Origin: an uncultured Anaerolineales bacterium
GTDB lineage: Bacteria > Planctomycetota > Phycisphaerae > FEN-1346
NCBI GenBank assembly: GCA_964397995.1
Contig: CAYNLG010000009.1
Coordinates: 1,089 to 65,088 of the forward strand
Direction: 5' to 3'
Length of the DNA stretch: 64,000 nucleotides
A program made the translations under genes and the position numbers. Within the stretch, counting starts at the first letter, position 1. Each line of letters begins with the position of its first letter. Positions 148 to 4,519 of the stretch are shown here, piece by piece. Under the pieces are notes generated by a model. The model saw nothing but the letters and a program-made list of their open reading frames with translations. It made no database searches and was not told where the DNA came from.

Positions 148-169
148 CGTTCATGAATATTCATGAACG
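148..169. promoter_or_regulatory. 22-bp perfect palindrome CGTTCATGAATATTCATGAACG, candidate operator
   Basis: I read the site directly as a perfect inverted repeat. It is AT-rich within a 70% GC background and sits between an upstream gene end and the first gene of the mobile module. Confidence 0.5.
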
Positions 170-316
170 CCGAATCGCCCCCGGCGCTATCGCCAGGGGC
201 GTTTTTTGCGCCATTCCATGAATCTGCGGACGGTGGTGACGGGGGAATGATCCCCCGCGTCACGGAGGGTGCAGATCATGGGAACGCGTCCGCCCAGCTT
301 GGTTACTGTGGGTGTC

Positions 317-505
317 ATGGCCACCGAACTCGGGACCTCGGTGGACCGGGTGTGCCGCATCCTGCGCACGCGGTCGCACATCAGGCCCCGTGCCTACGCG
401 GGGCACGTGCGGCTCTTCGACAACAGCGCGATCGCCCAGGTGCGGCACGAGCTGACCGCCATCGACGCACGGCGCGCGGCCCGGGAGGGAGGTGAGGCCA
501 CATGA
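317..505 (+). CDS. small putative DNA-binding protein (HTH-like), mobile-element module
   Basis: The ATG at 317 lies in frame with ORF 269..505. The stop overlaps the next start as ATGA at 502-505, which indicates translational coupling. No confident family. Confidence 0.35.
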   Translation: MATELGTSVDRVCRILRTRSHIRPRAYAGHVRLFDNSAIAQVRHELTAIDARRAAREGGEAT

Positions 506-720
506 CCGCCACGAGCCCCCTGAAGGCGTGCCGGGAGAAATGCATGGACTGTTGCTGCGGCTCGTATCGTGCTGTGGGATTCTGCCCGGCGACGAAGTGT
601 GCTTTGTGGCCGTTCCGATTCGGGATGATGCCCAAGACTGCCGCGCGGAAGGTTGGCAAGGACCTCCTCACGCCGGCCACGATGCAGGACGCGCATGTGA
701 TGGGGGAGGACGGCCGATGA
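502..720 (+). CDS. small cysteine-rich protein (CxxxCxxCCC...C...C, possible zinc ribbon)
   Basis: 72-aa ORF with ATGA overlaps at both ends (502-505 and 717-720). Cysteine spacing suggests metal binding. Confidence 0.4.
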   Translation: MTATSPLKACREKCMDCCCGSYRAVGFCPATKCALWPFRFGMMPKTAARKVGKDLLTPATMQDAHVMGEDGR

Positions 721-1082
721 CCGCTTACGACGACAGAATCTCGCCGCCGGCCTCTACCCCCAGGGAGGGGACAGCTTCCGAAAACCCCCTGTCAGGAGCG
801 GGAGTTACGGCGCCAGGCGCCGCCTCAGGGGCCAGCGCGACGCCGCCGGCCTCCGCAGGGGAGACGCCGGCGCCGCTGCTCCTCAGCGCCACGCAGGCCG
901 CGCGGACGCTCGGCGTCAGCCGATCGCATTTCTACGCGCTCCACGACTCGGCGCGCGTCCCGTCCCCGGTCCGGCTGGGAAGCAGAGTGCTCTGGCGGCG
1001 GGACGACCTGGCGCGCTGGGTCGAAGCCTGCTGCCCGCCGAGGCACCTGTGGGAGGTGCGGCGCGAAGGGGGGACGCCATGA
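717..1082 (+). CDS. AlpA/excisionase-like HTH DNA-binding protein (MerR-superfamily excisionase-type HTH)
   Basis: C-terminus LLSATQAARTLGVSRSHFYALHDSARVPSPVRLGSRVLWRRDDLARWVE matches the excisionase-type HTH consensus. Low-complexity Pro/Ala/Ser N-terminus. ATGA coupling to both neighbours. Confidence 0.6.
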   Translation: MTAYDDRISPPASTPREGTASENPLSGAGVTAPGAASGASATPPASAGETPAPLLLSATQAARTLGVSRSHFYALHDSARVPSPVRLGSRVLWRRDDLARWVEACCPPRHLWEVRREGGTP

Positions 1083-2680: not shown

Positions 2681-2705
2681 CAAGCATCCGAACGCGTGGT
2701 ATAGT
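2677..2705 (+). promoter_or_regulatory. near-consensus sigma70 promoter TTGACA-N17-TATAGT driving a leaderless XRE regulator
   Basis: TTGACA at 2677-2682, exact 17-nt spacer, TATAGT at 2700-2705. The XRE ATG at 2714 lies about 8 nt after the -10 element, so the transcript would have essentially no leader. Confidence 0.5.
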
Positions 2706-2713
2706 GGTGTGCG

Positions 2714-2938
2714 ATGAGCGCCCCGCCGGACATCCAGGAGCAGTTGCGGCAGGCCATCCTGGAGGCCCCGTTCTCCCGGTACCGGTTGTCGCAGATGGCG
2801 GGTGTCTCGCAGGGCCAGCTCTCGCACTTCGTGAACCGGGACCGCAGCATCACGATGGGCACGGCCGCCAAGCTGGCGGCGGCCCTGGGGCTCTCGCTGG
2901 TGCCCCGGGGGCGGTCCCCGAGCAGCGAGGAGGCGTAG
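2714..2938 (+). CDS. XRE-family helix-turn-helix transcriptional regulator
   Basis: YRLSQMAGVSQGQLSHFVNRDRSITMGTAAKLAAALGL is a canonical Cro/C1-type HTH. 74 aa. Confidence 0.7.
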   Translation: MSAPPDIQEQLRQAILEAPFSRYRLSQMAGVSQGQLSHFVNRDRSITMGTAAKLAAALGLSLVPRGRSPSSEEA

Positions 2939-2941
2939 CCG

Positions 2942-4519
2942 ATGCGTGTCTTCAAGCCGACGTACAACGACCGGGGTGGGACGTCAAAGCGGACCTCGCG
3001 GTGGCACGTGGAGTTCCGTGACGCCTGGGGCAAGAAGCGGAAGGCCGCGGCCTTCAAGGACAAGGGCTAGAGCCACGAGTTCGGCAAGAAGGTGGAGAAG
3101 CTTGCCGAGTGTGTGGCCAACGGGGAACCGCCGGACCGGCCGCTTCGGCGGTGGCTGGAAGGGCTCCCGCCGCGGCTCCAGAAGCGCTTGGCCACGGTGG
3201 GCCTCCTGGAAGGGCGGCGGCTGGCGGCGTCGAAGCCGCTGGCGGAGCATCTGGAGGACTGGCGGCAGGCGCTGCTCGACAAGGGCGCGTGCGAACGGCA
3301 CGCGCAGCAGGTCTTCTCGCGGGCGGAGCGAACGTTCCGGGCCTGCAGGTTCACCAAGTGGTCCGACCTCTCGGCCAGCGCCGTCATGCGGTACCTCGGC
3401 CAGCGGCGCGAGGGCGCGAAGCCCATCTCGGCCCAGACGTTCAACTTCTACCTGCAGGCCGTCAAGCAGTTCGCCAAGTGGATGGTCCGCGATGGCCGGG
3501 CGACCGAGTCGCCCCTGGCGCACCTGCAGGGCCTCAACGTGCGGACCGACCGGCGACACGACCGGCGGGCCCTGACGGCGGACGAACTGCGGCGGCTCTT
3601 CGAGACGACCCCCGAGCAGGACGAGCGCGGCGGCATGAGCGGCCACGAGCGGGCCATGCTCTACCGGCTGGCGGTCGAAACGGGGTTGCGGCAGAACGAA
3701 CTCCGGAGTCTGACGCGGGCGTCGTTCGACCTGGAGGGCGACCCGCCGACGGTGACGGTCGAGGCGGCCTACAGCAAGCATCGGCGGGACGACACGTTGC
3801 CGCTGCGGCCCGAGGTGGCGGTGGTGCTGAGGGACTTCCTGAGGGAAAGGGCGCCCGCCACGCGGGCGTTCCACGTTCCGAACCGGGACGTCATGCTGCG
3901 GGCCTACAAGCACGACCTACGGGCGGCGGGCATCGCGTACAAGACCGACGCCGGCTACGCGGACTTCCACGCGTTGCGGCACACCTTCATCACGCTGCTC
4001 GCGCAGAGCGGCGTGCACCCGAAGACGGCCCAGTCGCTGGCGCGGCACTCGACCATCACCCTGACGATGGACCGGTACTCGCACAGCGTCGTCGGGGACC
4101 ACGCGAGCGCCCTGGACAGGCTGCCCGACTTCGACCGTCCGAAGGCCGGTGCGGCCCGCGCGACGGGGACGGACGACCGGCCTGTCTTGTCGCAAAACTT
4201 GTCGCGATCCGGCGGGCGCGGGCGGACGGGGGCGGACAGCGGCGGACCGGCAAACGGCGAATATGGGGAGAAATCGAGCAAAACACCCATTAAACAGATA
4301 TCGACTGCCAGCCTTGAAAACCGGCGTGCCCTTCGGGGTACCGGGGGTTCGAATCCCCCCCTCTCCGCCAGGATTCGGCAGAAGAGCGGCACCCCGCCGG
4401 TCCGGCAGCGCGTCGGCGGCTTGCTTAGGGGGGCCCTTCGGGTATACTTCCGGCACGCACGCCTGCTGCGCCCCGGAGGACGCCGTGTTCGACCGCCTGT
4501 TCCGAGGTCCCGTCCTTGA
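2942..4519 (+). pseudogene. int: tyrosine recombinase/phage integrase interrupted by an in-frame TAG (3067-3069); the ORF stays open through the att-like region
   Basis: N-terminal arm-binding-like segment MRVFKPTYNDRGGTSKRTSRWHVEFRDAWGKKRKAAAFKDKG is followed by TAG, and the same frame continues into ORF 3092..4519. The catalytic region HALRHTFITLLAQSGVHPKTAQSLARHSTITLTMDRYSH carries the R..H..R..Y signature. The 120-aa C-terminal extension past the catalytic Tyr is atypical. The core domain probably ends near 4150. Confidence 0.7.
4334..4360 (+). other. tRNA/tmRNA-like 3-prime terminal fragment (T-arm GGGGG-TTCGAAT-CCCCC, acceptor CTCTCCG, CCA); probable att core of the integrative element
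   Basis: Canonical T-arm and acceptor 3-prime strand ending CCA, but no complementary 5-prime acceptor strand within 120 nt upstream, so it is not a complete tRNA. It closely resembles tmRNA 3-prime ends (GGGGGTTCAAATCCCCCC..CCA). It sits directly next to the integrase. Confidence 0.45.

Follow-up and report, generated by a model that had tools for sequence, protein, structure and literature searches.

The 64,000-nucleotide stretch of DNA analysed in the present work (the window, from contig CAYNLG010000009.1) carries at its left end what we judge, with reasonable but not full confidence, to be the right-hand part of a small integrative element, self-replicating but not self-transmissible, which is inserted at a tRNA-Ser(UGA) gene in a Planctomycetota (Phycisphaerae-like) genome. 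The visible length of the element is at least 5.4 kb, of which about 4.4 kb lies inside the window, and comparison with its family suggests a full size of about 6 kb. A compact integrative element of about 4.4 kb had been proposed earlier from the window alone (the original prediction); the nature of the element stands, and its size has been revised upwards because a metagenomic contig from the Logan assemblies (L001, sample SRR7048219), which agrees base for base with the window along 4,342 nt, reaches 1,063 nt to the left of window position 1 and supplies the rest of a gene for a 342-aa protein together with 175 nt upstream of it. The opposite boundary had been placed outside the window, which agrees with the present analysis, in which the left end was not located.

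The composition of the element is foreign to its host. The G+C content of the window is about 72%, and the tetranucleotide distance of the element from the rest of the window is 0.204, whereas 55 equally long host windows give 0.121 +/- 0.011, with a maximum of 0.154; a composition identical to that of the flanking genome, which the original prediction had named as evidence against an inserted element, is thus not what is found. The + strand open reading frames (ORFs) of positions 1-4519 have a coding-type G+C content at third codon positions (GC3) of 0.75-0.99, and this periodicity supports all of the genes listed in the table. Neither a second copy of the element nor another integrase gene occurs in the 64-kb window, and searches of the visible 5.4 kb against Pfam, PHROG and NCBIfam detected no gene for conjugation or for transfer of the FtsK/Tra type, and no match of the psu, delta, sid or epsilon type in any ORF. 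Three complete relatives (L053, L070 and L081) likewise have no such transfer gene.

The right boundary is formed by an attachment (att) core that corresponds to the 3' half of a tRNA-Ser(UGA). Positions 4313-4370 contain, in order, a UGA anticodon loop (CTTGAAA), the 3' strand of the anticodon stem, a long variable arm, the T-arm, the acceptor strand CCTCTCC, the discriminator G and CCA; they can be aligned with genuine tRNA-Ser(UGA) genes over the 3' half, whereas the sequence upstream does not align with the 5' half, and ARAGORN finds no whole tRNA at the fragment. The fragment next to the integrase gene (int) had been described as the 3' end of a tRNA or tmRNA. The tRNA half of that description is borne out by the alignment; tmRNA identity is rejected on the basis of the UGA loop, the long variable arm, the serine-type acceptor and the discriminator G, and Rfam returned only a T-arm look-alike match. 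The fragment starts about 50 nt past the last GC3-periodic integrase sequence and is unique in the 64-kb window. On its element side it is preceded by a 48-nt AT-rich spacer and, further upstream, by tandem GGCGG(A/G)C units, which together may represent the att arm; the related element L040 has a two-copy repeat at the position equivalent to these units. On the host side, a gene at 4485-5192 starts 114 nt after the core, and the element adjoins a beta-helix protein gene.

Duplication of the core, which integration should produce, is indicated by the positions at which metagenomic contigs break. L001 ends at position 4342, and two contigs found through the neighbouring host gene, L152 (SRR7048219) and L153 (SRR7048224), start at 4342. 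Since contigs in a k=31 graph extend for 30 nt within a repeated sequence, these breaks define a repeated segment of 59 bp at 4313-4371, which has two left and two right contexts in two samples, as an attL/attR (or attB/attP) pair predicts. A tRNA gene that was disrupted without being duplicated is disfavoured, because contig breaks also occur where the tRNA segment ends on its 3' side. On the left, L001, L002 and L083, which come from three samples, share their starting base, which lies 175 nt upstream of the 342-aa gene; contigs that carry homologous elements (L155, L156 and L161) break at a similar place. The 30-mer shared by the three coinciding ends, which forms the first 30 nt of L001, is not the tRNA core and is absent from the window. 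Exact-pattern scans for this 30-mer and for the tRNA half returned nothing from the JGI metagenomes, a scan for the core returned nothing from IMG/VR, and the repeats within L001 include no att copy.

The interpretation of the window is helped by a comparison with relatives, which were collected by searching GTDB genomes with a helicase profile; this gave 80 loci, mostly in Phycisphaerae and other Planctomycetota. At about 33 of the 80, the same strand carries a homologous int 0.3-2 kb downstream, frequently with a gene for an XRE regulator in between and an AlpA gene upstream. A complete tRNA gene is present at the int end in 22 relatives, with many specificities, and homologous modules lie at tRNA-Thr, Lys, Arg, Glu, Gly, Phe, Val, Pro, Asn and Ser genes in other Planctomycetota. 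These modules, together with the outlying composition and the repeated 59-bp segment, uphold the earlier proposal of a compact integrative element beside a tRNA-derived att site. Exact direct repeats of 16-71 bp delimit the complete relatives (see table). The three smallest, L070, L053 and L081, contain a gene for a protein of 290-311 aa, which has a winged-helix match only in L053, along with small ORFs, AlpA, an AAA_25 helicase fronted by Toprim or DnaB_N, either XRE or HicA, and Int. In L070, the slot held elsewhere by XRE is occupied by a HicA toxin gene (11868-12074; 1.5e-24), and the XRE protein of the window itself shows a weak, sub-threshold similarity to HigA antitoxins.

Because the complete small relatives carry the same gene set, the element is best regarded as a self-contained minimal unit and not as the stump of an integrative and conjugative element (ICE) or prophage; the earlier suggestion of an ICE remnant does not survive this comparison. 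It is accordingly improbable that the element is what decay has left of a larger prophage, ICE or integrated plasmid, with the rest lying to the left or deleted, even though the left boundary is not seen, the integrase is interrupted (see below), three relatives of 11-14 kb (L034, L044 and L011) carry extra genes, and three metagenome contigs break at one point to the left of the 342-aa gene. The three relatives of 5.7-6.4 kb in which both ends are defined contain just this gene set, a gene for a 290-480-aa winged helix-turn-helix protein is the first after the left end in the small relatives and homologous elements, and all of the genes of the window element other than int look intact and have coding GC3 periodicity.

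The interruption of the integrase is an in-frame TAG codon (3068-3070), which the identification of a tyrosine integrase in the original prediction, itself correct, had overlooked. The gene starts 3 nt after the XRE stop codon, and the 42-aa ORF that ends at the TAG shares its frame with the ORF that follows; in relatives the two are one fused protein with Ala or Gln at the TAG position. The remainder of the gene has a Phage_integrase domain (2.8e-19) with the R, HxxR, H and Y residues present, and its GC3 is 0.95 up to 4129 and 0.80 over 4130-4264. Since the catalytic part is intact, the mutation looks recent. The N-terminal part of lambda-type integrases binds arm sites; the TAG in this domain probably blocks arm-dependent recombination, so that the element is likely locked in place. 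Truncated integrases also occur in the relatives L015, L031 and L018. The copy in the window is probably an ordinary member of its family, likely immobile, in which decay is beginning.

Several observations weigh against the reading of the window as an integrated element of this kind. The second copy of the core is deduced from contig breaks alone, and a tRNA-Ser gene of identical sequence in another member of the community would break contigs in the same way. Neither a left att copy nor an intact tRNA-Ser was seen: extension of the contig to the left in search of a second core, which the original prediction had advised, gained 1,063 nt and the 342-aa gene, and the 59-bp core lies neither in this added sequence nor elsewhere in the window, while the coinciding left ends of the three metagenome contigs lack it too. 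No origin or iterons were found in the element when they were looked for, and all that is said of its excision, replication and regulation is inferred. The TAG codon is also present in L001, which probably derives from the same reads as the genome bin, so it probably reflects one read set and may be a minority allele or an error. Finally, the core is in the sense orientation with respect to int in the window and the complete tRNA is antisense to int in the 22 relatives, among them L040 (Planctomicrobium sp. SH664, Int 48% identical), whose target is also tRNA-Ser(UGA).

The sense orientation is regarded as a real variant. In L007 a sense tRNA adjoins int, and in L044 int lies beside a 5'-half tRNA-Arg fragment and the whole tRNA is at the far end, 12 kb away; the layout in the window, with int followed by a sense 3' half, similarly implies an intact tRNA at the far left end. 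An inversion or rearrangement was rejected as the cause, because recombination between inverted cores keeps the int-core orientation. It might alternatively be argued that the fragment is not the element's own att site, and that it lies beside int by chance as a leftover of some earlier event or a side product of rearrangement. The orientation opposite to that of nearly all relatives, the lack of a second copy in the 64-kb window and the left contig ends without a core are all compatible with this explanation, which we nevertheless consider very improbable: the distance from the fragment to the catalytic domain is the same as that of the tRNA in relatives, the fragment starts exactly at the anticodon loop, as att sites of the anticodon-loop type do, it follows an AT-rich spacer and tandem repeats of the kind usual in att arms, and L044 provides a precedent for an int beside a fragment with the whole tRNA at the far end.

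Features of the integrated element (window coordinates) and of relatives with both ends defined (coordinates of each locus)
Feature	Position	Strand	Basis or remarks
3' end of 342-aa gene (last 46 codons)	1..141	+	gene call on L001; gene start 888 nt left of window
Candidate operator: perfect 28-bp palindrome, CGCCGTTCATGAAT followed by ATTCATGAACGCCG, of two TTCATGAA sites	145..172	.	repeat search
GC-rich hairpin then T6; intrinsic terminator or attenuator, between 342-aa gene and operon	176..207	+	folding
Leader hairpin: region after third CATGAA site, pairing with ribosome-binding site GGAGGG (264-269) and ATG 278	214..283	+	folding
75-aa conserved protein	278..505	+	ORF, gene call, GC3 0.84; GGAGGG 8 nt upstream
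72-aa Cys-rich protein, four conserved Cys	502..720	+	family alignment
121-aa AlpA/excisionase-family HTH_17 protein	717..1082	+	Pfam, NCBIfam, PHROG
533-aa replicative helicase: DnaB N-terminal domain, AAA_25 (RecA/RepA-like) ATPase, C-terminal helical tail	1079..2680	+	Pfam
Sigma-70-type promoter TTGACA-17-TATAGT, TG extension	2677..2705	+	consensus scan
74-aa XRE/Cro-C1-type helix-turn-helix regulator	2714..2938	+	HTH_3/XRE match 4.7e-8
Integrase N-terminal (arm-binding-type) segment, 42 aa, ending in in-frame TAG	2942..3070	+	ORFs, relatives
Integrase remainder: core-binding and catalytic domains, ATGTD tail	3071..4264	+	Pfam, alignment, GC3
Tandem repeat, about four 10-bp units of GGCGG(A/G)C; candidate arm-type sites for integrase binding	4211..4247	+	repeat analysis
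AT-rich spacer (48% GC), 48 nt, element side of core	4265..4312	.	composition
59-bp att core: tRNA-Ser(UGA) 3' half, anticodon-loop nucleotide 32 to CCA plus 1	4313..4371	+	tRNA alignment, contig breaks
Relative L070	8245-8531 with 12572-14041 (core inside the int frame)		repeat 71 bp; 5.7 kb; tRNA-Thr
Relative L053	6497-6735 with 11534-12991 (core inside the int frame)		repeat 47 bp; 6.4 kb; tRNA-Lys
Relative L081			repeat 16 bp; about 6 kb; tRNA-Arg
Relative L034	1406-1662 with 11446-12879 (core inside the int frame)		repeat 44 bp; 11.4 kb; tRNA-Gly
Relative L044			repeat 53 bp; 12 kb; tRNA-Arg
Relative L011			repeat 39 bp; 13.8 kb; tRNA-Phe

The operon in the middle of the element consists, as originally described, of four genes that are chained by three ATGA start/stop overlaps (502-505, 717-720 and 1079-1082, + strand). 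The first, for which ATG 278 is the most likely start, had been called a small helix-turn-helix (HTH) protein. It is indeed a conserved gene, with homologues 70-79% identical directly after the 342-aa homologue in three other elements (L154, L157 and L158); the HTH label has no family match behind it, there being no significant match in Pfam, PHROG or NCBIfam, and a MerR/excisionase-like HTH was inferred only by eye. The Cys-rich protein is confirmed as a four-cysteine (Cys4) protein with the motif PLKAIRxKCLDCCxGS..V..C....C.LWPYRFG, in which three Cys are invariant and the fourth is present in at least 90% of the sequences. It has no match in Pfam, PHROG, NCBIfam or the PDB, and a word-indexed search returned only the protein itself; the family is very large and unannotated, with 3,775 cluster representatives at E<=1e-3, and its members often hold two tandem copies of the domain. 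The AlpA/excisionase-like assignment of the third protein is supported by matches to HTH_17 (1.6e-7), Phage_AlpA (2e-4), the TIGR01764 excisionase family (1.4e-6) and phrog_66 (1.7e-9), and the protein is a putative recombination directionality factor. The fourth protein had been labelled a DnaB-N/AAA_25 primase-helicase. Both named domains are present (PF00772, 1.5e-22; PF13481, 1.9e-38), with intact Walker A (GDPGVGKS) and Walker B (VVIDP) motifs, and the primase part of the label is rejected because no primase domain was found in Pfam, PHROG or NCBIfam searches; the protein is a helicase only. Many relatives of the helicase have Toprim, Prim-Pol or PriCT modules instead of the DnaB N-terminal domain.

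The XRE gene and int follow a separate promoter whose -35 hexamer overlaps the helicase stop codon. This promoter has 11 of 12 consensus matches and is the single such site in the 5.4 kb, where 0.1 would be expected in shuffled sequence. It ends 8 nt before the XRE ATG, which makes a leaderless or nearly leaderless mRNA plausible, so that the XRE protein is probably translated without a leader, as had been suggested. At the other end of int, the integrase frame (ORF 3092-4519) stays free of stop codons for 148 nt past the att core into host DNA. No codon periodicity is present after 4264 and the end at 4519 is merely the first stop codon, which means that automatic annotation would overextend the integrase gene across the tRNA fragment.

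To the left of the operon lies the 342-aa gene, the first of a regulatory cassette that is conserved in homologous elements. Its product is all-helical with two HTH-like repeats (an HTH_AsnC-type match at 7e-6); an AlphaFold2 model (predicted local distance difference test score, pLDDT, 60.6) is confident only in the two HTH units. Only three homologues are detectable (P0275-P0277), and each heads the same module, in which a homologue of the 75-aa protein comes next, then a small protein, and then a replicase and a recombinase. The replicase is of the Prim-Pol+D5_N+DUF5906 type in L154, which has a serine-type recombinase, of the RepB_primase+DUF3987 type in L157, which has a tyrosine-type recombinase, and of the DUF5906 type in L158, a pattern which indicates an exchange of modules around a fixed pair of 342-aa and 75-aa regulators.

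The DNA between these two genes is conserved in the four elements (window 145-283; L157 3397-3541; L158 5034-5179; L154 2393-2613), which are otherwise diverged. The 22-bp centre of the palindrome is nearly invariant among them, and its conserved form, CCGTTCATGAAnATTCATGAAC, lies at 146-169 in the window. Pairing in the hairpin at 176-207, which a simple consensus terminator scan did not flag, is kept among the elements through one compensatory and two wobble changes. Leader pairings equivalent to the one over the ribosome-binding site (RBS) and ATG occur in L157 and L158 despite their different sequences, a comparison of three sequences that gives weak grounds for a leader hairpin, and region 140-285 folds with a z of -4.5. 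These features, in three or four sequences, modestly suggest a switch built from an operator, a terminator and an RBS-covering leader. The coupled regulatory module of the original prediction thus gains a conserved palindrome, terminator hairpin and leader between the cassette genes.

The element might work as follows. XRE and Int would be made constitutively from the leaderless promoter, and XRE would hold the element quiescent, while the left cassette, made up of the 342-aa protein, the operator palindrome, the terminator, the RBS-sequestering leader and the 75-aa protein, would gate the operon of HTH, Cys-rich, AlpA and helicase genes. Upon induction, AlpA would act as directionality factor while Int recombined the two tRNA-derived cores, and the element would be excised as a circle. 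The circle would be replicated by the helicase, whose DnaB N-terminal domain is proposed to recruit the host DnaG primase because the element encodes no primase. Transfer between cells would require a helper, which could be a phage particle, a conjugative element or a vesicle, because packaging or transfer genes are not present.

A further property of the family emerges when the reading frame of the integrase is followed into the att site. The Int frame is open into the antisense tRNA in 21 of the 22 relatives with a complete tRNA (L040 being one of the 22), and along that stretch of 240 nt the other two frames lack stop codons in only 6 of 44 cases. When the excised circle is reconstructed, with the right core joined to what follows the left core, Int is extended by 57-72 aa in L070, L053 and L034, and the added part has at its end a motif common to the three, D(P)xL..V..WP.LP.AI(R/K)AGI.AMV.A, which corresponds to no Pfam family. 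A profile of this motif matches the left end of 10 elements. For seven left ends the frame was traced upstream, and in these the motif shares its frame with the translation of the antisense tRNA fragment; in all seven elements with both cores, Int and motif are read in one frame across the core, for which the probability under independence is (1/3)^7. In the relatives' family attP thus lies inside int, and integration detaches a conserved C-terminal segment and leaves the catalytic domain whole. Further loci with this arrangement are L005, L026, L057, L081, L031, L036 and L042. In L005 (1688-1711 and 13065-13088), L026 (3341-3363 and 12752-12774) and L057 (4577-4598 and 13405-13426), the reconstructed attP has a further direct repeat of 22-24 bp on either side of the core; it is exact in L005 and L026 and 95% identical in L057, and it probably represents arm-type integrase sites within coding sequence.

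The int frame of the window has no stop codon before or within the core. The motif is found in neither the window nor L001, and the left end, where it would be expected to be encoded, lies outside both; a switch in the window copy would require that the missing left end encode an in-frame extension with a sense core. We advance only tentatively, as a possibility well short of an even chance, that the window element belongs to a Planctomycetota-wide family of replicative elements of about 6 kb in which attP lies inside int and integration switches Int from an integration-competent form to that of the integrated state, that this is a bacterial counterpart of the “suicidal” integrases of archaea, and that the elements are possibly the first phage satellites of Planctomycetota.

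The integrases of the relatives resemble the archaeal “suicidal” integrases of the Sulfolobus spindle-shaped virus (SSV) type (PMC8371274) in having the attP core inside the reading frame, so that integration alters the protein. SSV-type integrases are split near the N-terminus, whereas the relatives lose only the C-terminal extension of 57-72 aa and keep the catalytic domain whole, so that they would represent a milder, C-terminal version of a self-disrupting integrase. They are closer in spirit to the integration-dependent immunity of mycobacteriophages (PMC10865867), in which the repressor gene carries attP. One review regards self-disrupting integrases as exclusive to archaea.

Among known mobile elements, the nearest in gene content include the phage-inducible chromosomal minimalist islands (PICMI) of Vibrionaceae (PMC10803314), which like the element have about 6 kb with a tyrosine integrase, AlpA, a replication protein and small ATGA-overlapping ORFs, and which share with the family the lack of capsid or packaging genes and the direct repeats at the ends. 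The replicase of the element is of the DnaB_N+AAA_25 type, whereas PICMI have a DUF3987 (PF13148)/DUF5906 (PF19263) primase, and its site is tRNA-Ser, whereas PICMI lie downstream of fis; in addition, XRE and int are at its 3' end and co-directional, its host is a member of the Planctomycetota, and no helper phage or packaging is known. When the PICMI rule was applied, the co-localised integrase (PF00589, PF00239 or PF07508) and AlpA (PF05930 or PF12728) were found, and the DUF3987/DUF5906 primase and the fis site were not. P4-like satellites resemble the element in a tyrosine integrase aimed at tRNA genes, in AlpA, in a replication protein of the primase/helicase type with a DNA-binding tail at its C-terminus, and in their small size; the element differs in lacking psu, delta, sid, epsilon and cos, in having a helicase without primase and D5 modules, and in being about half as large. 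Tycheposons and cryptic elements of Prochlorococcus (bioRxiv 10.1101/2020.12.28.424599) likewise have excisionase and helicase/primase modules, and degenerate copies with fragmented integrases, as in the window, are common among them; the element differs in host phylum and protein families and has no cargo module, and tycheposon membership is set by those authors' own gene profiles. The virion-encapsidated integrative mobile elements known as VEIMEs (PMC9618062) have an integrase, AlpA, an excisionase and a primase/helicase, and no capsid-remodelling genes, as here, but they are defined by their recovery as concatemers from virus particles.

These likenesses raise the question of whether the element is a true phage satellite of the PICMI, P4-like or VEIME type, in which a helper would induce the AlpA-helicase operon, followed by excision, replication and packaging, probably as concatemers. 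The size of about 6 kb and the combination of int, alpA, a replicase, small ATGA-overlapping ORFs and no structural genes fit PICMI (PMC10803314) and VEIMEs (PMC9618062); elements with the same 342-aa/75-aa cassette carry primases of the PICMI/P4 type (DUF3987, DUF5906 and Prim-Pol+D5_N); and the 12-kb L044, whose integrase scored highest against that of the window (332 bits), encodes a terminase large-subunit homologue (12168-13784; phrog_2, 1e-22). We nonetheless think a satellite unlikely. No helper phage is known, and no cos or pac site, terS or capsid-related gene is present; none of 68 helicase-related loci in IMG/VR combines this helicase with a close integrase relative in the AlpA-helicase-XRE-Int-tRNA layout, five having only distant integrase-profile matches; no relatives of the 75-aa protein were found in IMG/VR, and PHROGs contain no family for it or for the Cys-rich protein; and the integrase is interrupted in the window copy. 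Satellite status is thus unproven, and the reading of the window as a small integrative element that replicates but does not transmit itself is the one retained here.

The element itself adds little, being one more small tRNA-targeting integrative element which is probably disabled. Its value is as an entry point to a compact family of about 6 kb that is widespread and seemingly undescribed in Planctomycetota, although of a known general kind. The family keeps its regulatory cassette and swaps its replicases (AAA_25 helicase, Toprim-AAA_25, Prim-Pol/D5, DUF3987 and DUF5906) and its recombinases (tyrosine or serine), and in many members the integrase gene would be rebuilt only in the excised circle, a feature of the family that is more interesting than the element in the window. 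If confirmed, these elements would be candidate integration vectors with defined att sites for Planctomycetota, which are poor in genetic tools, and integration-dependent gene restructuring would extend to the integrases of bacteria.

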